This document shows positions 24,109 to 49,348 of a stretch of 55,140 nt of DNA, piece by piece. Below the pieces are notes generated by a model, which was not told the origin of the DNA, made no database searches, and saw only the letters and a list, made by a program, of their open reading frames with translations. Source of the DNA: Gammaproteobacteria bacterium (GTDB taxonomy: Bacteria; Pseudomonadota; Gammaproteobacteria; SZUA-229); contig JBLYYN010000191.1 of assembly GCA_048550535.1 (NCBI GenBank), positions 1 to 55,140 of the forward strand, read 5' to 3'. The position numbers were made by a program, and so were the translations under genes. Position 1 is the stretch's first letter. Every line of letters begins with the position of its first letter.

Positions 24109-24196
24109 AACAACCTCATATTTACAGTTAAAAATTAAGAATATTAGAATACGAAATAGTATACTATTTTAATCAAGAATTATATGTACAGGAAGT

Positions 24197-24990
24197 ACGG
24201 TATGTCGCGGGCGCAGGGATGCGTAGGAGCGACGGCACAGGATGTGCAGTATGTCGCGGGCGCAGGGAACCACATGGATGTGGTGAAGTAGAGCAATGCA
24301 TGGAGCAATTGCCGAGATGCGCAGGAGCGACGTGCCAAGGTTCACTAGATAAAGCAATAGATTAATACAGGAGCAACTGTCGAGAGCAACGCATGGAGCA
24401 GTTGCCGAGGATGTGCGGGCAGATAATTGCTCCTGCATTTTCTGCATACATGCCATCCCTGGCAATATATACCGCGGGGCCAAGGAACCACATGGATGTG
24501 GTGAAGTAGAGCAACGCAGGAGCGGCGCGCTAAGGGTCATGCAAAGATGCGCTGAAGCAACGCATGGACGATGTTAATGGATTAATAAGTATCTCGAGAG
24601 GGCAGGAATAGCCCGAAAAGACTCAATTACCGAGATGCGCAGGAGCGACTGCACAGGATGTGCGGCAGGTTTTTGCTCCTTCAAAACCTGCATTTCCGCC
24701 TTCCCTGACGGTCGTATGCCACGGGGCCTAGTACAGATAACTGCTCCTGCGTTATCTGCATTTCCCACATCCTTGTGGGTCATGGCCAGGACGCCTACAG
24801 GGAGGTAGGCGGCACGAGCCCAAGGACGGGCCAAGGTAGAACAGTGCAGGAGCAACTGTCGAGAGTCGAGTCACGACTAAATGGATTTAGGAGTTAGAGT
24901 GAAGCAGGAAGCCAGAACCGAGGAACAGAGACCGAGCGGCGTGTTTAGGGCCAAAGATGCGCAGGAGCGGTTATTACACAATGTGCGCTG
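24197..24990. repeat. Degenerate tandem/mosaic repeat array (units start near 24197, 24248, 24466 and 24709)
   Basis: Repeated modules are GGAACCACATGGATGTGGTGAAGTAGAGCAA (24266, 24484), GAGATGCGCAGGAGCG (24314, 24622, 24955), CAGGAGCAACTGTCGAGAG (24368, 24847) and AAAACCTGCATTTCCGCC (24683). All are in the same orientation as unit A. Confidence 0.75.
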
Positions 24991-25074: not shown

Positions 25075-26106
25075 ATGCAACAGCTGCAAACCAAGGTACA
25101 AGCCAACTGCAACCTCTCAGATGCCCAACATGCAGGCAATTACACTTTATGCATTTATTTACTGAAAATGCGCGAATATTTCCGTTGGGAAACCGGTCAG
25201 GCTTTTGGCAGCCCACTATCTAAAGACGATATTGGTGAATGGCTGACAGATCGCGAACAATTGTGGGATGGACTCGAAGATGATGACTATCAGACTCTTG
25301 ATATCGACGATCAGCAATTCGACCCCTTTCACAGCCGCGATATTAACCAACAACTGAATCCAATGGGCCTTGTGTACAGTGGCGGTTATGGCAACATGGG
25401 TAAACCTGTATTTTTTCTGGCCGAAATCGAATCCATAAAGCAGCTGGATGATTACACTATATACATATCATCGAAGGAACTGGCTCGAGACCTGGCCGCA
25501 CCTCCCGGCATGGCACAGGACAAATGCGTATATATCCGTCGTGAATCACTACGCCGCTTCCTTTGGGAAAAATATGAAGAATCCCACTGGTATAACCTGG
25601 ACAATCCACTGGCCAGAGCTCTTGCCTGCTACGATTTCAAAAAACACGCGGACGATTCGCTGGAGCTTATGACAGATGCAGAAATTGATACGGTATTGCA
25701 TCATGAAATGGGTGAAATACAGGCCGGACAAAGACTGGGTGATGACTGGGAAGCGATGCTGTCCCGGCTACCCCGTTCCCAGGCAGAATTACTGATTCGT
25801 TCTGTAAGGGATAACCTGGCTGACAGTCTTTCTACCCTTCCCAGATTACTGGAAGATGCCGAACCAGCTCGCATTCATTTCTATTTCGCCAATCTAAGCA
25901 ACCTGAGAAAAATGATTTTCCCCTCCATCATGAATGCCTACCAGGAATGGTTAAAGCATGGTGATAAATCACCCATAACAAAACTCATGAACAAGTCTGA
26001 AAAGCACTGGATGAATCTCGCACAGCAAAGCCTGAAACTGTTCAGCAAACATGGTGATGACAGTGCGCCGCATATAGAATCATTCATCAAAAGCCATTAT
26101 CTTTAG
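25075..26106 (+). CDS. Conserved hypothetical protein (343 aa)
   Basis: Long ORF, 38 nt upstream of a 2OG oxygenase gene. I can name no catalytic motif. Confidence 0.65.
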   Translation: MQQLQTKVQANCNLSDAQHAGNYTLCIYLLKMREYFRWETGQAFGSPLSKDDIGEWLTDREQLWDGLEDDDYQTLDIDDQQFDPFHSRDINQQLNPMGLVYSGGYGNMGKPVFFLAEIESIKQLDDYTIYISSKELARDLAAPPGMAQDKCVYIRRESLRRFLWEKYEESHWYNLDNPLARALACYDFKKHADDSLELMTDAEIDTVLHHEMGEIQAGQRLGDDWEAMLSRLPRSQAELLIRSVRDNLADSLSTLPRLLEDAEPARIHFYFANLSNLRKMIFPSIMNAYQEWLKHGDKSPITKLMNKSEKHWMNLAQQSLKLFSKHGDDSAPHIESFIKSHYL

Positions 26107-26144: not shown

Positions 26145-26753
26145 ATGTATCACGACTCGACTCAGCGCAAAGATCTACAAACCATCCATGAAGTAAAACC
26201 TGGAAGTTTTATATACTTACAGGACAATGCTTTAGCCAGTGATATCTGTCAGGAAATGATACGTCGTTTCGAAGCTAAACCCGAAGACCAGTACCGTGGA
26301 CGAATCGGCCAGGATTTCAAGGAAGATAATTCCATAAAAAAATCTACTGACATTGCCCTTAGCGCACACGAACATTGGCGCGATATTAATCAGGAACTGT
26401 TTCGTTCATTAAGTTCAGCTATCCGTGAATTTGCCAATGCCTTCCCATTTTTCAAAGGCCCATTCAAAGACGTAGGCTATGCCATGCAGCGCACCGAAGC
26501 AGATGAGTATTATCACTGGCATATCGATGGTGGTAGCCACGACTTCGCCGACCGACAACTGGTCGCTCTGTGGTATCTGAATGATGTAGCCGGTCCTGGT
26601 GGTGCTACAGAGTTTTTGTTTCAGGATGTCGCCTTACAGCCTAAACAGGGGGCCCTGGCTTTATTTCCCCCATTCTGGACCCATGAGCATAGGAATTCAC
26701 AGTTGCTGGAAGGGGTGAAGTATGTGGCTACTACCTGGGTTTCTTTTGCATAA
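26145..26753 (+). CDS. Fe(II)/2-oxoglutarate-dependent oxygenase (prolyl-4-hydroxylase-like fold)
   Basis: HxD motif in YYHWHIDGG, a distal His in FWTHEHRN and a basic residue in KYVATTW. 202 aa. Confidence 0.75.
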   Translation: MYHDSTQRKDLQTIHEVKPGSFIYLQDNALASDICQEMIRRFEAKPEDQYRGRIGQDFKEDNSIKKSTDIALSAHEHWRDINQELFRSLSSAIREFANAFPFFKGPFKDVGYAMQRTEADEYYHWHIDGGSHDFADRQLVALWYLNDVAGPGGATEFLFQDVALQPKQGALALFPPFWTHEHRNSQLLEGVKYVATTWVSFA

Positions 26754-26827: not shown

Positions 26828-27256
26828 ATGGTAATTACTACACCAAAATCCAAACGGGACTTCGCACAATATTTTCATCTGCGCTGGAAAATACTAAGAA
26901 AACCCTGGGGAGAACCAGAAGGTTCAGAGCAGGATGAGCATGAAGGCAGCAGCTATCATGTTATGGTGAAAGAGGGTGATAAAGTTATTGGCGTAGCACG
27001 CTTACAGAATATTGCGCCAGCGGTGGCACAGGTCCGCTATATGGGTATAGATGATAATTACCAGGGCAAAGGCATTGGTCGATTGATGATGCAGCATATA
27101 GAAGCCTATGCCCGAGACAGTAACATTGATGAACTATTTCTACACGCCAGAGAAAATGCCCTGGGCTTTTATACAACGCTTGGCTATAAGCAGTTGGAGA
27201 AGTCCTACCTGCTATTTAACAGTATCCAGCACTACAAAATGAACAAGAGAATTTAA
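26828..27256 (+). CDS. GNAT-family N-acetyltransferase
   Basis: Acetyl-CoA binding motif QGKGIGRLMM. 142 aa. Confidence 0.85.
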   Translation: MVITTPKSKRDFAQYFHLRWKILRKPWGEPEGSEQDEHEGSSYHVMVKEGDKVIGVARLQNIAPAVAQVRYMGIDDNYQGKGIGRLMMQHIEAYARDSNIDELFLHARENALGFYTTLGYKQLEKSYLLFNSIQHYKMNKRI

Positions 27257-29784: not shown

Positions 29785-30141
29785 TTAATCACAAAAAACA
29801 ACACCCTTAGAAACCGCCAGTGACTTGATATGCCCCTCGTCCGGATAAGCCTCCGGCGCCATCTGCATAGTGGTCTGCCATTCAGAAAACAAACTGGCCA
29901 GCTCTGGATCCGAACCATGGCAGCCCAGCACACTGATCACACAATCCCCCACCTTCCACGGGCCGTCACCCTTATATTTTCCCTGCACCAGATGTATTCC
30001 TGATTGCTCTGGCTGCTGATGCCAGAACACTTCAAAATATAGCAGGCCTTGCGGATGTTGAAAATATTCGGCCATGATGTGTTTACGACCATCGGGTAAA
30101 CGAATCACCAGGGGTGATTTCATAGTAAATAAATCAGCCAT
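29785..30141 (-). CDS. Hypothetical protein (118 aa)
   Basis: ORF starting 3 nt after the upstream 117-aa ORF. No motif recognised. Confidence 0.5.
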   Translation of the reverse strand: MADLFTMKSPLVIRLPDGRKHIMAEYFQHPQGLLYFEVFWHQQPEQSGIHLVQGKYKGDGPWKVGDCVISVLGCHGSDPELASLFSEWQTTMQMAPEAYPDEGHIKSLAVSKGVVFCD

Positions 30142-30144
30142 ATA

Positions 30145-30498
30145 TCAGGTGGCTATGTCGATTTCATCGATTTCCAGGTCATTATGCACCGTAATGCCTT
30201 TAACGTTTGGCATGGTATGGATGATATAGGCGCTCATGAGATAAAACATACGCTTGTTTTCGGTATGCATGGCACTCACCAGTTTATTGGCCGCCACCTG
30301 ACAACGCTGTTCCGGTGTCGGGTTTTCTACCCAGAATCGCCCCAACTGCCAGCCCTTATCCATATCATCATCCATGGTTTTAAAAAAATCCTGGGCCTCA
30401 TCCAGTAATTGCTCAGGCACATCCAGTGCATAGGCCTCCTGATCAATGTTAATATTCAAAATCATTGTTTCATACGCTTTGCTTTTAGAGCGTGGCAT
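30145..30498 (-). CDS. Hypothetical acidic protein (117 aa; the start may be the internal Met of MILNINID)
   Basis: ORF divergent from the PiuC-like gene. No motif recognised. Confidence 0.5.
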   Translation of the reverse strand: MPRSKSKAYETMILNINIDQEAYALDVPEQLLDEAQDFFKTMDDDMDKGWQLGRFWVENPTPEQRCQVAANKLVSAMHTENKRMFYLMSAYIIHTMPNVKGITVHNDLEIDEIDIAT

Positions 30499-30555
30499 TA
30501 TATCAGAAGGTTTAGGCTGCCTCTAAACCTAATACCCTGTTGCACTGGAGAAATC

Positions 30556-31230
30556 ATGCTTATACCGATTCATGGCGTACTCGATCAGGATCAACTATCT
30601 AGTGTACGTAAAATACTGGATGAATCGCAATTTGTGGATGGTCGATTATCCGCCGGCGTAACGGCGAGAAAAGTGAAGAACAACCAGGAAATCCCACAGA
30701 ATGCACAGGTTCTCAACCAGCTCAACAACATTGTCATGAACAGCCTGTTCAATCATCCTGTTTATCAGGCCGCGGTCATACCCCACCGGGTTGCCACGCC
30801 TTTCTATGCCCGTTATGGCTCAGGACAGTTTTATGGCGACCATGTTGACGACCCCATCATGGGCCCAATGAACGGCCGTTATCGCACTGACGTATCCACT
30901 ACCCTGTTTCTTAATGACCCTGACGAATATGACGGCGGAGAAACCGTAATTCGCACTCACATGGGTGACAATAGAGTAAAGCTGGCCGCGGGAGATGCCA
31001 TCACCTATCCTTCCGGCAGCCTGCACCATGTCGCAGAAGTAACCCGAGGCACCCGCCTGGTCGCCGTGAATTGGGCGCAGAGCATGATTCGAGACCCAGC
31101 CAAGAGGGAGCTACTATTCGAACTGCACAAAGCCCGTGAATCCTTACAGAAGAAATACCCGGATGATGATGAAATCGTGAAAATTGACCACAGCTACATC
31201 AACCTGGTACGCATGTGGGCGGAGATTTGA
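30556..31230 (+). CDS. PKHD-type Fe(II)/2OG hydroxylase (PiuC/YbiX-like)
   Basis: MLIPIHGVLDQDQL... N-terminus, HxD in YGDHVDD and a distal His in GSLHHV. GGAG lies 6 nt upstream of the ATG at 30556. The track start at 30409 is rejected because it overlaps the divergent gene. Confidence 0.85.
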   Translation: MLIPIHGVLDQDQLSSVRKILDESQFVDGRLSAGVTARKVKNNQEIPQNAQVLNQLNNIVMNSLFNHPVYQAAVIPHRVATPFYARYGSGQFYGDHVDDPIMGPMNGRYRTDVSTTLFLNDPDEYDGGETVIRTHMGDNRVKLAAGDAITYPSGSLHHVAEVTRGTRLVAVNWAQSMIRDPAKRELLFELHKARESLQKKYPDDDEIVKIDHSYINLVRMWAEI

Positions 31231-31422: not shown

Positions 31423-31626
31423 TTAACGTTTTGAACCTTTATCAGCATGAGCAGCGTCACACAGTTCCATTGCTTTATCATTAAAGGTTTCACGATAACC
31501 GTCCAGTGCATGACCAGACTCAGGAGTGTAGTAGTTTTTTGCATCAAAACCGTTTTTGTGTTCGTTTTCGATAAACTTCTTCTGCATTTCGATCAATTCT
31601 TTGATCAGTGTGTTTCTGTCGCTCAT
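31423..31626 (-). CDS. Small hypothetical protein (67 aa)
   Basis: ORF with a terminator downstream and ordinary composition. No motif recognised. Confidence 0.45.
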   Translation of the reverse strand: MSDRNTLIKELIEMQKKFIENEHKNGFDAKNYYTPESGHALDGYRETFNDKAMELCDAAHADKGSKR

Positions 31627-31739
31627 TAGCTCTACCTCATGAAGTCTTTATTAATCCGGCCAGTTCAACCAAGTTGCAGAATTATAGCCGGTATTGAACA
31701 AGAATGCCTCTACCCCAATGGGAATAGAGGCATTAATAG

Positions 31740-32078
31740 TTAATAACCGCCTTTACGGGTACTCTGTGGCAGGCCAGCGATTTTACGACCCTGCTTGCTG
31801 GGCGCAAGCGGGAATAGCCCGAAAGTATCTTTACTGGAAGGCTTACTGCCCCAGATTTTACCCAGATCCTTCAGGATAGTACGCTCATTAGGCTCATTGC
31901 CTGCATTGTCAATGTGCTCAGCGCGCAGATACTTGACAACATCCCAGTGCTTGTCAGTCATTTCGATGCCTTCTATAGCGGCCAGTGCCAGCGCAACATC
32001 TTCGTTCCAGTCATTTATATCAGCCAGGTAACCGGTTTCAGTTACTTCGATTGATTTGCCATTTACGTCTAGTGCCAT
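31740..32078 (-). CDS. DsrC/TusE-family paralogue lacking both C-terminal cysteines
   Basis: Aligns along its whole length with the DsrC at 38136-38468 (VNGKS.E..E.GYLA....W.....A.A..E......HW.V...LR). It ends ...QGRKIAGLPQSTRKGGY rather than ...QACKYAGLPKPTGCV. Confidence 0.85.
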   Translation of the reverse strand: MALDVNGKSIEVTETGYLADINDWNEDVALALAAIEGIEMTDKHWDVVKYLRAEHIDNAGNEPNERTILKDLGKIWGSKPSSKDTFGLFPLAPSKQGRKIAGLPQSTRKGGY

Positions 32079-32255
32079 GATTTAGCCCCTATCAAAAATG
32101 CAATTATTAACAGTCAAAATTCTAAGGGGGCTAACTTAATCATAGTTTACCTGAAATGTCACTTATCCCATTAGATATATTAGCCAAGTCTAAATCATTA
32201 AAAATAAGCCTGAGGCAGGATTTTTATCTTATAATTTCAATGACTTGAAGAAATA

Positions 32256-32969
32256 CTATTCGGCGCCGCTAAAATGTGATGTTTCGGACATATCACCTAC
32301 CGGCTTAATACCTTTGTGGGGAATGAACAGGCCAAAACCCATTTTTCGGCCATCGCCGATGCCATGAGTTTGCAGCAGCACCGATTCTTCAGGATCCAGA
32401 TCCGCCACCATGACACTCATGGTACGCACCCGCCCCTGGGGTAGCCTGAACTCATGACTGATGCCGCACAGCGCCTTGTTCAGTGTGATGCCCATGGCTT
32501 TCATATCACTGGACAGGCGAGCAACCAGCTGATCTTCGGTTTCATTCTCCTGCAGCAGAATATAACGGGCAAACAGAGTCCCAAGAGAAGTCAATGGCTT
32601 CACCTGATAATCACCCACAGTGATGGCATTGCCAGCGATATCAAGGGTCTGCCCCACTAGTGCCTGTGCATCCTCAAATCGATCTTTGGGCATACGCAGC
32701 ATCATACGGGAGCGTTTTGACAGGTAAATAAAATCTTCACCGTCCTCTTCTTCCGGACGCTGCCAGCCATTGCCTGATGACGCACCATGAATCAGATGCA
32801 CGCCGGCACGCTGTTCGTCGGCCAGCCAGGGCAATGCCAGGTGTAGCGCCTGGGACAGATCATGAGCATGATCCAGTGCAATTTGCTTACAGCTGATCTT
32901 GAACGAAAGATCCGCGATATCATCCGGTACCACAAAGGACTGTTCGCGTTTATTTTCTTCCCACAACAT
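32256..32969 (-). CDS. RAMP/Cas6-like protein (tentatively Cas6/Cmx6-like) without CRISPR context
   Basis: 237 aa. The C-terminal GIGDGRKMGFG matches the Cas6/RAMP glycine-rich loop GhGxxxxxGhG exactly. The family assignment is from memory and unverified. Confidence 0.45.
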   Translation of the reverse strand: MLWEENKREQSFVVPDDIADLSFKISCKQIALDHAHDLSQALHLALPWLADEQRAGVHLIHGASSGNGWQRPEEEDGEDFIYLSKRSRMMLRMPKDRFEDAQALVGQTLDIAGNAITVGDYQVKPLTSLGTLFARYILLQENETEDQLVARLSSDMKAMGITLNKALCGISHEFRLPQGRVRTMSVMVADLDPEESVLLQTHGIGDGRKMGFGLFIPHKGIKPVGDMSETSHFSGAE

Positions 32970-32986
32970 ATGCAGAACTCACTCTA

Positions 32987-33178
32987 TTAACGATGAGGGG
33001 AAGTAAAGGCCACTTCCAGGCGATTCTCCCAGTCATTGGGGGTATCGGGAAACGGGGGACGCACATCGATCTGGAAATGCATTTCACCTTTACGTGCCCG
33101 CTCTTTTAATGCTTCTATCAAACTATCGAAACTTTCCAGCTCATGCTCCTGCATAAGCACTTCACTCAGATACAACAT
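32987..33178 (-). CDS. Small acidic hypothetical protein (63 aa, or 55 aa from the Met at 33154)
   Basis: Wedged between the TauD-like and Cas6-like genes. It either overlaps the upstream gene by 17 nt or starts 8 nt after it. Confidence 0.4.
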   Translation of the reverse strand: MLYLSEVLMQEHELESFDSLIEALKERARKGEMHFQIDVRPPFPDTPNDWENRLEVAFTSPHR

Positions 33179-34106
33179 GCTTCAACACCCTATCCAAATC
33201 TGTCTGTTCAATCCGGTCGAAATACCTCGCCCGATATAATAAACGTTGCCGTCCCGATGCGGGATCATCGGTAAAACCGCTACGAGAGTGCAATATATTA
33301 TTGCAGACTATACCCTCACCTGGCTTTAACCTATACCTAATTACATAGGGGTTATCTGGGGTCAGTAGTTCCGTAATACAAGCCACCGCTTCCTGTGTGA
33401 TGGTATTATTTTTCCACTCGATATTCCGAGTGCGTGCAGTGTATCTCATGTGCAGATTTCCGGTATCTGGCTGCAAAGAAAACACGGGGCCCGTTTGCTC
33501 ACCACGTATTTCCACTCCCTGCTCAATATTAGCCGGTATAGTCATCACATCTGGCTGCATCAGCGCCTGGATAAAGTCCGGATTCTGGTCACGAAGCTGA
33601 ATGTACGCAATTTCATGATCCAGTAGCATATTTTCACCACCCTCGGCTGCATCCTGAGCACAATGCATTAAAATTCCACGAATTTGCTTATCCGGTGTAT
33701 TGTAATAACCATCGGTATGCCAGCTCAGGCGACGATTGGTATAGGGAATATACCCTGAATGTCGACCCACTTCGCGGACTTTCAGCGAACTGATACTGTC
33801 TCCATCGGCACAGAGATTTCCATCCAGGCGATTAAGGCCCATCTGCTTCCCAAGCATCTTGATCATCGATTTATCCACCAGCTGATGGTCCTTGAAGCGA
33901 TAAATCACAAAATTACTTTTACTACAGATATTTAACAGTTGAGTCAGTTCAGCTTGTCCAATAGCGTCAGGCTGCAAATCAACCCTGAGCTGATCAATGG
34001 ATGTCGGGTAAGCGTCCAGCTTGCTCTCTCGCCAGCGAAAATAGGCGACCTCATTGTGGAGCAGGAATGGATTTTGTTGCATTTGGTAAATCGCCTCAAA
34101 ACGCAC
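33162..34106 (-). CDS. TauD/TfdA-family Fe(II)/2OG dioxygenase
   Basis: HxD in LSWHTDGYYN and distal His/Arg residues in NNILHSRSGF...RQRLLYRARY. 314 aa. Confidence 0.75.
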   Translation of the reverse strand: MRFEAIYQMQQNPFLLHNEVAYFRWRESKLDAYPTSIDQLRVDLQPDAIGQAELTQLLNICSKSNFVIYRFKDHQLVDKSMIKMLGKQMGLNRLDGNLCADGDSISSLKVREVGRHSGYIPYTNRRLSWHTDGYYNTPDKQIRGILMHCAQDAAEGGENMLLDHEIAYIQLRDQNPDFIQALMQPDVMTIPANIEQGVEIRGEQTGPVFSLQPDTGNLHMRYTARTRNIEWKNNTITQEAVACITELLTPDNPYVIRYRLKPGEGIVCNNILHSRSGFTDDPASGRQRLLYRARYFDRIEQTDLDRVLKHVVSE

Positions 34107-34293: not shown

Positions 34294-34337
34294 TATCCCA
34301 TATGGGATATATGGAAGATCCTATTCCCCCCCATGGG
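34294..34337. promoter_or_regulatory. Two CCCAT(AT)GGG-centred palindromes in the TauD-like/dsrA divergent control region (candidate operator)
   Basis: A perfect 16-bp palindrome TATCCCATATGGGATA (34294-34309) and CCCATGGG (34330-34337), with centres 32 bp apart. Confidence 0.3.
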
Positions 34338-34529
34338 TAGGATGTTCTCATGTGCCAGCTAGGCCTAGACTACTTCGCACTGAAGAAGGAGGAATTTTTC
34401 TGTTTACTCAGAAAATGACTTCCACAGACTTATTAACCGTATGGCTCGTCCATATAAAGAAAGTTAGGGGAGCAGGCACTTACCGCGCCCCTAGGATAAA
34501 AACCTGTCGTCCCTACTACGGAGATCGCC

Positions 34530-35780
34530 ATGGCAGCAAACAAGATCTATGAAACACCGATGCTGGATGTACTGGAAGATGGCCCTTGGCCTAGCTTCAT
34601 TACTGGTATCAAAGCACTACGTGATAACCACGAAAGCCAATTCATCAACGATATCACTAGTTCTCTGCTCGGTCAGCTTGAGCATTCTTATGAAACTCGT
34701 AAGGGTTACTGGAAAGGTGGTACAGTGTCCGTATTCGGTTACGGCGGTGGTATCATCCCCCGTTTCTCTGAAGTAGCAAAAGCTTTCCCAGAGTCTAAAG
34801 AATTCCATACCCTGCGTGTACAGCCTACTCCAGGCAACTATTACACCACTGACATGCTGAATCAGCTTGCAGACAGCTGGGAAAAACACGGTTCAGGCCT
34901 TGTTACTTTCCACGGTCAGACAGGTAACATCATGTTCATCGGCACGACTACTGACGGTACTCAGACATTCTTTGATGAAATCAATGAGTTCGGTTGGGAT
35001 CTGGGTGGCGCGGGTCCTTGTGTACGTACGGCTATGTCTTGCGTAGGTGCGGCTCGTTGTGAAATGTCCTGTACTAACGAGCATGCTGCACAGCGCTGGC
35101 TGGTGAACAACTTCACTGACGATGTTCATCGCCCTGCCCTGCCTTACAAGTTTAAGTTCAAGATTTCTGGTTGTCCAAACGACTGTCAGAATGCTATCGA
35201 ACGTTCTGACATGGCCGTAATCGGTACATGGCGCGACGATATGAAAGTTGACCAGGCTGAGTTCAAGAACTACCTGGAAGCTAAAGGCCGTCAGTACATC
35301 ATTGATAACGTAATCACTCGCTGCCCGACTCAGGCCCTGTCTCTGGGTGACGACGATTCTATTCAGGTTGACAACCGCAACTGTGTACGTTGCATGCACT
35401 GCCTGAACGTTATGCCTAAAGCACTGCGTCCAGGTGATGATAAAGGTGTAACTATTTTGATCGGTGGTAAACGTACTCTGAAAATCGGTGACTTGATGGG
35501 TACAGTTATTCTGCCATTCAAGAAGCTGGATACTCGTGAAGACTACGAAGAACTGGTCGAATTTGCTGAAGAAGTTATCGACTTCTGGGCAGAAAACGCA
35601 CTGGAACATGAGCGTTGTGGTGAAATGATTGAACGTATCGGCCTGGTTAACTTCCTGGAAGGTATGGACGTTGATGTTGATCCTAATATGGTTAACAGCA
35701 CACGTCAAAGTTCTTATGTCCGTATGGATGGATGGGACGACGAAGCGGTTAAATGGTTCGAGCGTAAAGCAGAAGCCTAA
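34530..35780 (+). CDS. dsrA: Dissimilatory sulfite reductase alpha subunit DsrA (oxidative type)
   Basis: 416 aa with siroheme/[4Fe-4S] Cys clusters and a ferredoxin-like insert (CPTQA...CVRCMHC). Heads a dsrABEFHC... operon. Confidence 0.95.
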   Translation: MAANKIYETPMLDVLEDGPWPSFITGIKALRDNHESQFINDITSSLLGQLEHSYETRKGYWKGGTVSVFGYGGGIIPRFSEVAKAFPESKEFHTLRVQPTPGNYYTTDMLNQLADSWEKHGSGLVTFHGQTGNIMFIGTTTDGTQTFFDEINEFGWDLGGAGPCVRTAMSCVGAARCEMSCTNEHAAQRWLVNNFTDDVHRPALPYKFKFKISGCPNDCQNAIERSDMAVIGTWRDDMKVDQAEFKNYLEAKGRQYIIDNVITRCPTQALSLGDDDSIQVDNRNCVRCMHCLNVMPKALRPGDDKGVTILIGGKRTLKIGDLMGTVILPFKKLDTREDYEELVEFAEEVIDFWAENALEHERCGEMIERIGLVNFLEGMDVDVDPNMVNSTRQSSYVRMDGWDDEAVKWFERKAEA

Positions 35781-35797
35781 GCTTAAAAGTCTTGAGA

Positions 35798-35835
35798 TTC
35801 GATAATTGCGGGGATCCATCCCCGCCGTTATCGAA
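35798..35835 (+). other. Intercistronic stem-loop between dsrA and dsrB
   Basis: Outer stem TTCGATAA/TTATCGAA and inner stem GCGGGGA/TCCCCGC (15 bp in total, with 2-nt symmetric bulges). No T-run follows. Confidence 0.6.
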
Positions 35836-35865
35836 AGTTTAAATATATAACTTGAGGAACTAATC

Positions 35866-36942
35866 ATGGCAATGGCAGATATGCGTCCGCCCATCGAGTC
35901 TGGATGTCCAGACGGTTTCCAGTACATGCATCCTACGATGCGTCGTAATTTTGGCCAGTGGAAATATCACACTGACCCTCGTCCTGGTGTTCTGTGTCAC
36001 GTTGCAGAAAGCGGTGAAAAAATCTTCACTGTTAAAGCCGGAACTCAACGTATTCTCGACCTGTTCACCCTGCGTGAACTGACTAAAATCGGTGATGAAT
36101 TTGCAGACGGTTACATCCGTTTTACTATTCGTTCTAACATCGAATTTAATGTAGCCGACGAAGCTAAAGTTGAGCCTCTGATTAAAGCTCTGGAAGATGC
36201 TGGCTATGTTGTTGGTGGTACTAAAAACTCGGTAACTACTCTGTCTCACACACAGGGCTGGTTGCACTGCGATATCCCGGGCACTGATGCCTCTGGTGTT
36301 GTTAAATCCATGATGGACGAACTGATTGACGAGTTCAAACAGTGGAACATGCCTAACCGTGTTCACATGACTACATCTTGCTGCCAGATCAACTGTGGTG
36401 GTCAGGGTGACATCGCGATCAATGTTCAGCACACCAAGCCACCTAAGATCGATCACAGCCTGGTTGCCAACGTTTGTGAGCGTCCTACTGTTGTTGCTCG
36501 TTGTCCGGTAGCCGCTATTCGTCCTGCACTGGTCGATGGCAAACCATCTCTGGAAATTGACGAGAAGAAATGTATGTGTTGTGGTGCATGTTTCCCTCCT
36601 TGTCCTCCTATGCAGATCAACGATGCAGAGCACAGTAAACTGGCTATCTGGGTTGGTGGTAACCACTCAAATGCTCGTGGCAAACCCACTTTCCAGAAAC
36701 TGGTTGCATCCGGTATTCCTAACAACCCACCTCGTTGGCCTGAAGCGACTGCTGTCGTTAAGCAGATACTGAAGTGCTACAAAGAAGATGCTCGCGATTG
36801 GGAGCGTGTTGGTGAGTGGGTTGAGCGTATCGGCTGGCCTCGTTTCTTCGAACTGACCAGTCTGCCATTCACTAAGTACCACATTGATAACTGGCGTGGT
36901 GCTCGTGCAAGCCTGAATGCTTCTACGCACATCCGTTTCTAA
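35866..36942 (+). CDS. dsrB: Dissimilatory sulfite reductase beta subunit DsrB
   Basis: 358 aa with Cys clusters (CCQINCGG, CPVAAI...CMCCGACFPPCP). Immediately follows dsrA. Confidence 0.95.
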   Translation: MAMADMRPPIESGCPDGFQYMHPTMRRNFGQWKYHTDPRPGVLCHVAESGEKIFTVKAGTQRILDLFTLRELTKIGDEFADGYIRFTIRSNIEFNVADEAKVEPLIKALEDAGYVVGGTKNSVTTLSHTQGWLHCDIPGTDASGVVKSMMDELIDEFKQWNMPNRVHMTTSCCQINCGGQGDIAINVQHTKPPKIDHSLVANVCERPTVVARCPVAAIRPALVDGKPSLEIDEKKCMCCGACFPPCPPMQINDAEHSKLAIWVGGNHSNARGKPTFQKLVASGIPNNPPRWPEATAVVKQILKCYKEDARDWERVGEWVERIGWPRFFELTSLPFTKYHIDNWRGARASLNASTHIRF

Positions 36943-38135: not shown

Positions 38136-38468
38136 ATGCCTATCGAAGTAAACGGTAAGTCACTTGAGACTGATGAAGAAGGTTACCTCGCTAACCTGAA
38201 TGAGTGGGTACCTGAAGTTGCCACTGCTATGGCCGCTGCAGAAGACCAGCCCCTGGACGAAAATCACTGGGAAGTAATCAACTTTCTGCGTGAATATTAT
38301 GAAGAATACCAGATCGCTCCTGCGGTACGTGTTCTGACTAAAGCTATTGGTAAAAAACTGGGTAAAGACAAAGGTAACAGCAAGTACCTGTACGAACTGT
38401 TCCCATACGGCCCAGGCAAACAGGCCTGTAAATACGCCGGTCTGCCAAAACCAACTGGCTGCGTTTAA
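38136..38468 (+). CDS. dsrC: DsrC, the sulfur-carrier substrate protein of DsrAB/DsrMK
   Basis: 110 aa. The C-terminal arm ...QACKYAGLPKPTGCV carries both conserved cysteines: the penultimate Cys and a second Cys 11 residues upstream of it. Confidence 0.95.
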   Translation: MPIEVNGKSLETDEEGYLANLNEWVPEVATAMAAAEDQPLDENHWEVINFLREYYEEYQIAPAVRVLTKAIGKKLGKDKGNSKYLYELFPYGPGKQACKYAGLPKPTGCV

Positions 38469-47246: not shown

Positions 47247-48644
47247 ATGGATAACAAACTCAGACAAAGCAGCTTGAAAAATAATTCTCAACAGCGATTG
47301 TTTACCTGTATTTTTGTTCTGTTCATACTGCTGAGCGCCCTTGGTGCCAGCAGTTACTGGCTGATACATGCTGAACAACAGATTGCCATTGCCACAACGG
47401 TTCATATACTGATTTTGATCAGTGCTTTCTTTCTGGTCGCCTATATCGCCTCGCGCAACCAGAAACTGCAAAAGGAAGAAGTCGATCAACGTAATCATGT
47501 GCAGAATATTCTGTATGAGGTTGCAGCCAGCATTAACACCTGTCGTGATCTGAGTGAACTGCTTAATCGTTTTTGCGAAGCAGTTTATAGCGAATTATCT
47601 ACAAAAAGTATCAGTATCTGGCTGATCACCGATCAGGATACCCTGGAATACATCACCAGTTGCGGTATCCCCCCAGATCAGACAAGTCCCCACAAACGAA
47701 TTGATATCGAACAGGATATACAACAGCTGCTCACCGAGAATAAAATCATCCTGGCAAAAGATGAGCTATCCACAAACCTGCTGTCTGACCCATCAGTAAA
47801 TTATTGCTTCCAGGTACCATTACATCATCATTCCCGCACACTCGGAGTCCTCAATTTTGAATTAAGCTCGCTGCCGTTCAAGCCCAGCTATTTACAGGAA
47901 CTGATGATCACTCTGGGTAATCATCTCAGCATGGCCATAGAAAAGGCAAGACTGGATCAGGAATCACGTCGTATGTTAATCATGCAGGAACGCAGTTTAA
48001 TCGCTAATGAAATGCATGACTCACTGGCTCAAACTCTTGCCAGTCTGCGCTTTCAGGTCAGAGTACTGGATGAAACCCTGCAACCCACCAGTGAATTCAA
48101 AGCCATTCGAGGCATCGAGCAGGTCGAGAACAGTCTCGATGAAGCCTATACTGATTTACGAGAATTAATCGCCCATTGTCGTACCCCAATCAATAAACAG
48201 GGCCTGTTACCGGCTATCGAAAAGTTGATTTCACGATTCCGCAAGGAAACGGGTATTCATGTGCTTTTCCAGAAGGAATGGCAACACTCAGCTTTGCCAC
48301 CGAATATGGAAATGCACATATTTCGAATAATCCAGGAAGCCATGAACAACATTCGTAAACACAGCGGTGCCAACCACGTTCGTGTTATGTTCCGCTGTGA
48401 TGACAGGGGAAACCACCATATACTTATCGAAAATGACGGTATTGGTTTTGAAACACCCAAATCCAGTGATCATCCTGGCAAGCATCTGGGATTAACCATT
48501 ATGCAGGAACGTGCAGCCCATCTGGGCGGACACTTACGTATTGAGAGTGAACCTGAAGAAGGTACACGTATTGAGCTACAATTCACTTACAATAATGAAT
48601 CTCAAAATGATCCATTGCAACGATTATCGGGGATGAGCAGATGA
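47247..48644 (+). CDS. Sensor histidine kinase: two TM helices with a minimal loop, a cytoplasmic GAF-like domain, HisKA_3 and HATPase (NarX/NarQ class)
   Basis: H-box ANEMHDSLAQTLASL, N-box EAMNNIRKHSGA and G-boxes ENDGIGF/GLTIMQERA. Only about 5 residues separate the two TM helices. Confidence 0.85.
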   Translation: MDNKLRQSSLKNNSQQRLFTCIFVLFILLSALGASSYWLIHAEQQIAIATTVHILILISAFFLVAYIASRNQKLQKEEVDQRNHVQNILYEVAASINTCRDLSELLNRFCEAVYSELSTKSISIWLITDQDTLEYITSCGIPPDQTSPHKRIDIEQDIQQLLTENKIILAKDELSTNLLSDPSVNYCFQVPLHHHSRTLGVLNFELSSLPFKPSYLQELMITLGNHLSMAIEKARLDQESRRMLIMQERSLIANEMHDSLAQTLASLRFQVRVLDETLQPTSEFKAIRGIEQVENSLDEAYTDLRELIAHCRTPINKQGLLPAIEKLISRFRKETGIHVLFQKEWQHSALPPNMEMHIFRIIQEAMNNIRKHSGANHVRVMFRCDDRGNHHILIENDGIGFETPKSSDHPGKHLGLTIMQERAAHLGGHLRIESEPEEGTRIELQFTYNNESQNDPLQRLSGMSR

Positions 48645-49348
48645 GCATGCGTGTATTGATGATCGATGACCATGCCCTGTTTCGTGTTGGCTTACAGGGG
48701 CTGCTGGAACAGCGCGGTATCGAGGTTGTGGCCGCAGTGGCTGAAGGTTATGAGGGTCTGACTCTGGCCAAAGAACTGCAACCGGATATCATTCTTCTCG
48801 ACTTACGCATGCCCGATATGTCTGGCCTTGAAGTGCTACAGAAGATAAAGGAAATCGAACTAAAAATTCCTGTGGTCATGCTAACCACCAGTAACGAAGA
48901 ACAGGATCTGGTTGAAGCATTACGCAATGGCGCTCAGGGCTATCTGTTAAAAGATATGGAACCGGATGAACTGGTGAGTGCCCTGCGTGACATCGAAAAA
49001 GGCAAGAATGTAGTTGCTCAGGAACTCACCGATGTACTGGCCCGTATGGTACAGGGTGAACCCCATGAGGCGAAGCAACAAAAGCCAAGCCCATTTTCAG
49101 AACTTACCCCTCGTGAACTCGAAATTCTGTGCCTGTTAGCTGACGGACAGAGCAATAAAGTTATTGCCCGCAATCTGGGCATCTCCGATGGCACCGTAAA
49201 ACTGCATGTTAAAGCAATTTTACGCAAACTTGAGGTGCATTCAAGGGTTGAAGCTGCGGTCATCGCGGTTGAACAGGGCTTGAGACAAAAAAACCCGGGC
49301 AACCAGGATGCACAAGCAAACCATAACCGATCGGTAAATAAAAAATGA
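48641..49348 (+). CDS. NarL/FixJ-family response regulator (REC + LuxR HTH)
   Basis: VLMIDDH...DLRMPDMSG...K, and HTH LTPRELEILCLLADGQSNKVIARNLGISDGTVKLHVKAILRKL. ATGA overlap with the kinase gene. Confidence 0.9.
   Translation: MSMRVLMIDDHALFRVGLQGLLEQRGIEVVAAVAEGYEGLTLAKELQPDIILLDLRMPDMSGLEVLQKIKEIELKIPVVMLTTSNEEQDLVEALRNGAQGYLLKDMEPDELVSALRDIEKGKNVVAQELTDVLARMVQGEPHEAKQQKPSPFSELTPRELEILCLLADGQSNKVIARNLGISDGTVKLHVKAILRKLEVHSRVEAAVIAVEQGLRQKNPGNQDAQANHNRSVNKK

Follow-up and report, generated by a model that had tools for sequence, protein, structure and literature searches.

Why should a Cas6-like protein, of a kind known from CRISPR-Cas systems, be encoded together with an oxygenase beside the dsr genes of a gammaproteobacterium? 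The question is raised by the 55,140-nt contig JBLYYN010000191.1 (GCA_048550535.1) of Gammaproteobacteria bacterium SZUA-229, the whole of which is called the window here. At 32,256-34,106 it carries an operon whose first gene, divergent from dsrA, encodes a TauD/TfdA-type Fe(II)/2-oxoglutarate dioxygenase, followed by a small acidic open reading frame (ORF) and, in third place, by a gene for a 237-aa Cas6-like protein. An earlier reading of the window, referred to below as the original prediction, took the 237-aa protein to be a RAMP fold exapted for a non-CRISPR task, perhaps RNA or nucleotide recognition linked to oxidative modification. We report here that the protein belongs to a large and distinct subfamily of Cmx6-type Cas6 proteins that no longer resides in CRISPR-Cas loci, and that its usual unit is the triad of these three genes and its usual place is beside dsrAB.

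Fold and family of the 237-aa protein

The 237-aa protein matched the Pfam family PF09559 ('Cas6') with an E value of 9.7e-56, and it matched the NCBIfam model TIGR02807 (cas6_cmx6) with 106.7 bits, marginally above the curated cut-off of 98.85. Its homologues carry the database name 'type I-MYXAN Cas6/Cmx6', and the automatic annotation named in the original prediction is therefore correct as a description of the databases. When a profile of 20 homologues was compared with solved structures, there was one convincing match, the Cas6 chain 8fcj_B (E 6.7e-19). The AlphaFold2 model (pLDDT 82, pTM 0.80) pointed to the same chain in Foldseek, with an E value of 9e-16, TM scores of 0.73/0.80 and a root-mean-square deviation of 2.5 Å; the two ferredoxin-like (RRM) domains of the Cas6 superfamily are present, and nearly all of the top 41 Foldseek PDB matches (to E ~1e-3) are Cas6, Cas6e or Cse3. 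The C-terminal GhGxxxxxGhG loop, present as GIGDGRKMGFG, is invariant across the family and common to Cmx6. Its predicted position at nt 32331-32363 was exact and corresponds to residues 203-213, and the claim that it marks a Cas6/RAMP protein was borne out by both the profile and the AlphaFold/Foldseek comparisons. Judged by these profiles and this model, the 237-aa protein is a real Cas6 homologue with the Cas6/RAMP fold.

The family is abundant. In an exhaustive profile search, in which clusters at 50% identity were counted by E value, 1188 clusters were obtained at E <=1e-3 and 199 at E <=1e-30. The dsr-type pattern was present in all of the approximately 30 sequences inspected from this search, and about two-thirds of the top 150 clusters contained the exact GNGW and PHK motifs described below.

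Comparison with genuine Cmx6 and other Cas-derived proteins

For comparison, tblastn against plasmids provided six cyanobacterial genes named 'type I-MYXAN Cas6/Cmx6', and four of them were inspected. Three lie in cas6-cas3-cmx8/cas8-cas7-cas5 operons, and cas1 and cas2 were seen in the two loci whose flanks extend far enough. These three genuine Cmx6 proteins are only 24-26% identical to the window protein, but they are homologous to it over the whole length and share the double ferredoxin-like fold. The two types share the D-H pair that opens helix 1 (H34), R92 in LRLP, R135 and the loop LQxxGxGxxRxxGxGxF, in which G203, G205, R208, G211, G213 and F215 are invariant across dsr-type and genuine Cmx6 proteins.

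In contrast, the TIGR02807 scores are bimodal, at 206-255 bits for genuine Cmx6 (n=3) and 100-122 bits for the dsr type (the window protein and five others). The isoelectric point (pI) differs in the same way: it is 9.3-9.6 in genuine Cmx6, whereas the dsr type has a median of 5.9, with 82% of the proteins below 7 (n=381). This acidity comes from added acidic residues, because the core of the dsr type contains 21-31 acidic residues compared with 14-20 in genuine Cmx6, while the number of basic core residues is unchanged (20-29 and 20-26, respectively). Three elements are specific to the dsr type, namely an N-terminal extension with an M-[LY]-W-x-E motif, an 11-residue GNGWxRP insertion (modelled by AlphaFold2 with low confidence) and a PHKGI motif with a conserved tail, and two loops of Cmx6 are missing from it. 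The neighbourhoods also differ, since genuine Cmx6 has its cas operon, whereas cas3, cmx8, cas7, cas5, cas1, cas2 or an array never adjoin the dsr type. Because the shared residues were retained and acidic insertions were gained, the putative nucleic-acid site of the dsr type looks kept, with new acidic surfaces added.

Among solved structures, the best match in both structure and sequence is Cas6 of the type I-B CRISPR-associated transposon (CAST) Cascade (8fcj/8fcu chain B), which belongs to an RNA-guided transposition complex. It is 23% identical to the window protein, lacks the GNGW insertion and has Asn in place of the conserved His of the family. Derived CRISPR-Cas modules whose roles are non-immune or unknown have also been reviewed, with Cas proteins kept without an adaptation module, Cas3 or an array; an example is the array-less type I-E cas5-8 module with a STAND NTPase in Streptomyces (PMC8730458). 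Such derived modules retain several Cascade subunits and are defence-like, whereas a single RAMP protein stands here in an energy-metabolism locus with an oxygenase. The fourth of the inspected cyanobacterial genes encodes a Cmx6-type Cas6 with 161 bits to TIGR02807 and lies in another non-cas context, on the Gloeobacter morelensis plasmid pGMOR1 (L148 5974-9237), where the genes behind it code for a PAPS-reductase-family protein, a cupin protein and hypothetical proteins; it may represent a second, independent recruitment.

Genomic context

The original prediction that the window contains no CRISPR array and no cas genes held on every scan. No tandem or evenly spaced repeats were found in the window, no Rfam family was present in it at gathering thresholds, PADLOC detected no core cas genes among 40 other ORFs, and tblastn with Cas3, Cmx8, Cas7, Cas5, Cas1 and Cas2 of a genuine type I-MYXAN operon returned nothing from it. 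Likewise, neither type I-MYXAN cas genes (tblastn) nor arrays (k-mer test) were found in 144 related loci amounting to 1.26 Mb. A distant CRISPR locus elsewhere in the genome is an unlikely explanation because of the conserved synteny. Databases that name the dsr-linked proteins as CRISPR proteins are thus very probably wrong, and their name, 'type I-MYXAN CRISPR-associated protein Cas6/Cmx6', is best regarded as an over-call arising from an equivalog score that is only marginal.

The gene order was followed in 60 loci from one-genome-per-species contigs and in 80 metagenome loci obtained via a broader alignment, and divergent members were examined singly. The 60 genome loci are all from uncultured Gammaproteobacteria, including Thiotrichaceae, Ectothiorhodospiraceae, Thioalkalispiraceae and Competibacteraceae. 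In these loci, dsrE-B-A occupy one strand and the genes for TauD, the 63-aa protein encoded by the small ORF, the Cas6-like protein, a DsrC paralogue and a 67-aa protein occupy the other; beyond the 67-aa ORF come a PKHD/YbiX-type hydroxylase and two more conserved ORFs. This order held down to 40% identity of the Cas6-like protein and was repeated in the 80 metagenome loci. Five more distant members, at 32-45% identity, keep the triad; four of them adjoin dsrAB, and the fifth is a 1.9-kb contig that holds the triad only. In total, the order TauD, 63-aa ORF, Cas6-like gene was seen in almost all of about 150 loci, at 32-97% identity and nearly always divergent from dsrAB, so that the linkage of dioxygenase, small ORF and RAMP gene with dsr, proposed from the window, is conserved.

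Some variations of the triad were observed. In the divergent 1.9-kb contig, the ORF at the position of the small ORF matches Pfam DUF6967. In twelve loci (L064 7171-7878; L054-L056, L073, L095, L109, L134, L135, L141, L142 and L144), a further conserved gene, which codes for about 235 aa and has no match in Pfam, separates the small ORF from the Cas6-like gene.

Partner proteins

The assignment of the first gene to the TauD/TfdA-type Fe(II)/2-oxoglutarate dioxygenases was confirmed by its PF02668 match and by the conservation, in at least 97% of 106 homologues, of the iron triad H130, D132 (HxD) and H273 and of the 2-oxoglutarate Arg R288. The nearest solved structure is TmpA (6npb, E 1.6e-9), and by sequence the protein is nearest to the TmpA/gamma-butyrobetaine/trimethyllysine hydroxylase branch, not to taurine dioxygenase proper. 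According to the passages on this gene in PMC7596348 (citing Lenk et al. 2012) and PMC9371685, the name dsrQ has been given to a tauD-like gene that is transcribed divergently from dsrA in most aerobic sulfur oxidizers of the chemotrophic kind, and in the same passages it is speculated to free sulfite from sulfonates. The TauD gene of the window agrees with dsrQ exactly in position and family. The passages in these two papers treat the TauD gene only and do not mention the small ORF, the Cas6-like gene or a DsrC without cysteines, and our literature search for a Cas6-like gene beside dsr or dsrQ, which did not extend to the figures of Lenk et al. 2012, found none. The TauD gene is therefore already known as dsrQ, and for its Cas6-like partner we found no mention in the literature.

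Of the first 60 genome loci, 55 conserve the 63-aa protein, as do nearly all of the 80 metagenome loci, and its ORF lies directly upstream of the Cas6-like gene save in the loci with the extra gene of about 235 aa. It matched nothing in Pfam and NCBIfam. Its AlphaFold2 model (pLDDT 88.6) consists of three short helices and has no match in the PDB (best E 3.8). Some records label homologues of this protein (P0394, P0399 and P0412) as 'sulfur relay protein DsrC', a name at odds with its lack of a match to any DsrC profile.

The DsrC paralogue and the 67-aa protein usually come after the triad. As had been predicted, the paralogue lacks cysteine, with both catalytic cysteines replaced: compared with its best PDB match, DsrC from A. 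vinosum (1yx3), QAC has become QGR and PTGCV has become STRKGGY. The conserved C-terminal-arm cysteines of DsrC/TusE are thus missing from it, whereas they are kept in the true DsrC of the window. Its C-terminus, ...G(L/C)PxSxRKGGY, is invariant in all loci and is two residues longer than the DsrC arm. The 67-aa protein had no match in Pfam and NCBIfam.

Gene calls and neighbouring genes

All three minus-strand genes were found where the original prediction had packed them as one unit, and the operon is divergent from dsrA as it had stated, with dsrA beginning at 34530 on the opposite strand (Table 1). Small corrections apply to the starts and gaps. The true start of the TauD gene is probably the ATG at 34082, giving about 306 aa, because the homologues align from that ATG. 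The small ORF had been given as 55-63 aa, either overlapping the TauD gene or starting 8 nt after it; alignment indicates that the 63-aa form, with its 17-nt overlap, is the real one, because the N-terminus MLYLS is invariant in homologues, and the shorter form is dropped. The 237-aa gene follows in the predicted order, with a measured gap of 17 nt instead of 18 nt. The genes downstream of dsrAB were assigned by Pfam, and dsrJ was placed by position only.

Table 1 Features of the dsr-adjacent locus in the window
Feature	Position (nt)	Strand	Remarks
TauD/TfdA-family Fe(II)/2-oxoglutarate dioxygenase, 'dsrQ' type	33162-34106	-	314 aa from GTG; PF02668 E 3.9e-21
63-aa acidic protein	32987-33178	-	pI 4.8; 17-nt overlap with TauD stop
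Cas6-fold protein, dsr-linked PF09559 subfamily	32256-32969	-	237 aa; begins 17 nt past small ORF
Glycine-rich loop GIGDGRKMGFG	32331-32363	-	Residues 203-213 of the 237-aa protein
DsrC/TusE-family paralogue without both catalytic cysteines	31740-32078	-	PF04358 E 4.4e-29; also TIGR03342 match
67-aa conserved protein	31423-31626	-	No family match; kept in most loci, 43-94% identity
Palindrome TATCCCATATGGGATA	34294-34309		Upstream of dsrA; operator-like, NarL-type 7-2-7 geometry
Second, weaker palindrome copy	32164-32179		About 100 nt upstream of DsrC-paralogue start
Third palindrome copy	31711-31726		About 100 nt upstream of 67-aa gene
dsrA (34530-35780) and dsrB (35866-36942)	34530-36942	+	Head of dsrABEFHCMKL...OPN cluster; divergent from operon
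True DsrC of the window	38136-38468		Ends ...QACKYAGLPKPTGCV; cysteines kept

Several other genes surround the locus. The conserved neighbours in the window are the PKHD/YbiX-type 2-oxoglutarate hydroxylase (30550-31230) and two ORFs without an assigned family (30145-30498 and 29785-30141). Further away are DUF6866 (25075-26106), a second 2-oxoglutarate-Fe(II) oxygenase (26145-26753) and a GNAT acetyltransferase (26828-27256), and these three genes also adjoin the locus in L062 and L063. Three oxygenases therefore lie in one dsr-adjacent island of the window. Among other window ORFs, PADLOC gave weak matches to ZorB/MotB, CARF3, MzaA, mad8 and a 'CAS-associated 2OG' model, the last of which may be the oxygenase at 26145-26753. 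A stretch of about 800 bp at 24188-24975 is non-coding, without a convincing ORF, and full of degenerate 16-50-nt repeats, such as GATGCGCAGGAGCGACG, present six times; it was considered as a degenerate array and rejected on account of irregular spacing, copies in both orientations and degenerate repeats.

Palindromes and regulation

The palindrome TATCCC-N4-GGGATA (TAYCCC-N4-GGGRTA) occurs exactly three times in the 55 kb, each time in a spacer of the locus. Every one of the 82 complete dsrA-TauD spacers contained the copy upstream of dsrA. It lies about 222 nt from the dsrA ATG, and its distance to this ATG (sd 25) is steadier than that to TauD (sd 59). Its centre lies about 77 bp upstream of a presumed start, which itself comes directly after a conserved CCTAGACT box. 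Two conserved blocks were noted upstream of dsrA in addition to the palindrome, CCCnCCCAwGGGTAGGAT at 34326-34343 and CCTAGACT at 34364-34371, with fixed spacing in all loci. The CCTAGACT block looks like a -10 box, which would leave a leader of about 150 nt.

We considered the palindromes as RNA hairpins of the Cas6 type and rejected this reading. Whichever strand is read, G.U pairs and A.C mismatches are equally frequent at the dsrA site, there are few true compensatory changes and the flanks are unpaired; in the copy that precedes the DsrC paralogue only a single half-site is intact, and which of the two it is differs between clades. The rejection is less firm for the copy that precedes the 67-aa gene, which in the closest clade is embedded in a longer stem containing G.U pairs. 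From the pair statistics and the half-site loss, the palindromes are read as dimeric DNA operators, and on the whole they behave as operators of the NarL type and not as hairpins. We take the NarL heptamer consensus to be TACYYMT. The 7-2-7 layout is typical of NarL-family regulators (PMC7419079). After dsrN, the window encodes a GAF-HisKA_3 kinase (47247-48644) and a NarL/LuxR response regulator (48641-49348), and the arrangement has the look of a two-component regulon dedicated to dsr and the genes accessory to it.

Discussion

The fold is that of Cas6 and the context is free of cas genes both in the window and in 144 relatives, in agreement with the original proposal of a RAMP fold exapted outside CRISPR, and we consider it very likely that the 237-aa protein is a Cas6 exapted for a task outside CRISPR, within a dsrQ operon that is itself conserved. 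None of the refuting outcomes listed with the original prediction was obtained, as similarity to the Cas6 fold exists, the three genes stay linked in other genomes and their surroundings hold no cas genes. For its function we propose the following mechanism. The products of the overlapping or closely spaced genes would form one protein complex, in which the Cas6-derived subunit would recognize an anionic ligand, the most probable candidates being an RNA stem-loop and a nucleotide-like molecule. The ligand would be held by the retained glycine-rich loop and by the His and Arg site, and the new acidic insertions and tails would be the docking sites for the oxygenase and the small protein. Because the enzyme is a dioxygenase, the module would be active only in the presence of oxygen; it would be switched on with dsrAB via shared NarL-type operators, and in aerobic sulfur oxidizers it would help to regulate or maintain the reverse-Dsr pathway. 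Taken as a whole, identity and mechanism together, we give this explanation slightly less than an even chance. Its mechanistic part, with RNA as the ligand and the Cas6-like protein as the recognition subunit of DsrQ, is tentative and somewhat more doubtful. The most specific version, in which a Cas6-derived RNA- or nucleotide-recognition subunit in a complex of DsrQ, the 63-aa protein and the Cas6-like protein couples O2 to an oxidative modification or processing of RNA or nucleotides that controls or maintains reverse-Dsr, we regard as unlikely.

Several observations weigh against this explanation. No RNA target was found for the Cas6-like protein, as the locus contains no conserved RNA hairpin and no Rfam match, the dsrA leader contains no conserved sequence element, and the palindromes behave as DNA operators. 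The predicted RNA recognition tied to oxidative modification accordingly stays a hypothesis: the fold and the loop are kept, but no conserved hairpin in the locus offers a target. We know of no TauD-family enzyme that acts on RNA. The family is acidic, unlike the sampled genuine Cmx6. It is gene order that suggests the proposed complex, and no protein was found in which the small ORF is naturally fused to the Cas6-like protein, the long N-termini among representatives being unrelated to the small ORF. Moreover, a Thioploca-type locus (L061 7445-8687; eleven further places resemble it) consists of the small ORF and the Cas6-like gene only, without TauD, dsr or the DsrC paralogue, and a dsrQ-like TauD gene, whose product is 50% identical, stands alone on the Thiothrix fructosivorans plasmid pTfr153 (L149 8995-9900). 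This solitary gene adjoins a frame-shifted nrdD, and the small ORF, the Cas6-like gene and dsr are missing there. The parts of the operon can therefore separate. Because the Thioploca-type pair and the lone Thiothrix TauD exist, the small ORF and the Cas6-like gene form the tightest pair, which suggests, from gene content, that these two may be the minimal unit.

The same observations bear on the alternatives. The Cas6 fold may have lost nucleic-acid binding altogether and serve as a protein- or small-molecule-binding accessory subunit of the DsrQ oxygenase, which might present the arm of the DsrC paralogue without cysteines or hold a carboxylate-rich or sulfonated metabolite or a tetrapyrrole. 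The lack of an RNA target, the acidic pI that genuine Cmx6 does not have, the close linkage with an oxygenase and an acidic micro-protein, and the conserved, family-specific loops with many His, Trp, Asn and Gly residues (GNGWxRP, PHKGI and the N-terminal M-x-W-x-E) all favour such a role. However, the glycine-rich loop of Cas6 and its Arg, along with the His that Cmx6 also has, remain the best conserved motif, the core has lost none of its basic residues and owes its acidity to added acidic ones, and our tests pointed to no ligand or partner. We therefore see this alternative as possible, though rather doubtful.

A role independent of the oxygenase, in which the Cas6-like protein regulates dsr or operon mRNA post-transcriptionally or processes it as a nuclease and the neighbourhood reflects co-regulation only, appears quite improbable to us. 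The retained Cas6 features and the Thioploca-type loci, which keep the gene with the small ORF and without TauD, are in line with it, and the dsrA-dsrB spacer (35781-35865) forms a stable GC-rich stem-loop in the window and in almost every related locus with a readable spacer, followed in some by a T-run. The structure of this hairpin is kept, but its sequence is wholly different between loci, while the putative binding residues of the protein are invariant; for this reason it fits a stabilizer or attenuator better than a protein binding site, as far as sequence comparison can tell, and no conserved hairpin occurs elsewhere in the locus. Finally, the protein could be a working CRISPR Cas6 that is encoded apart from its cas operon and processes the CRISPR RNA of a distant array. 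It keeps the fold, the glycine-rich loop and the His, and its TIGR02807 'equivalog' score is above the cut-off, but the scores are bimodal relative to real Cmx6, and insertions, deletions and charge set the protein apart. Its home is the dsrQ operon in almost all of the approximately 150 loci down to 32% identity, and the 1.26 Mb of flanks contain no type I-MYXAN cas gene or array, so that we give this last possibility hardly any credence.

Conclusions

The dsr-linked family is an abundant and well-delimited case, comprising at least 199 clusters, of a single RAMP protein moved from CRISPR-Cas into core energy metabolism, and it bears on how Cas proteins are exapted. It also has a practical consequence, since the NCBIfam 'equivalog' model and PF09559 introduce a systematic annotation error that inflates CRISPR-Cas counts in the genomes and metagenome-assembled genomes of sulfur oxidizers. 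If the family still binds RNA, it may provide a compact binding module of new specificity. If the most specific version of the mechanism is true, a single Cas6 would for the first time be seen to serve metabolism instead of defence, and DsrQ would be the first TauD-type oxygenase that is RNA-directed. For the aerobic sulfur oxidizers with dsrQ, which are major players in marine sediments and symbioses, at least two unstudied and strictly conserved genes, those for the 63-aa and the Cas6-like proteins, are added to dsrQ, the role of which has itself only been guessed at.

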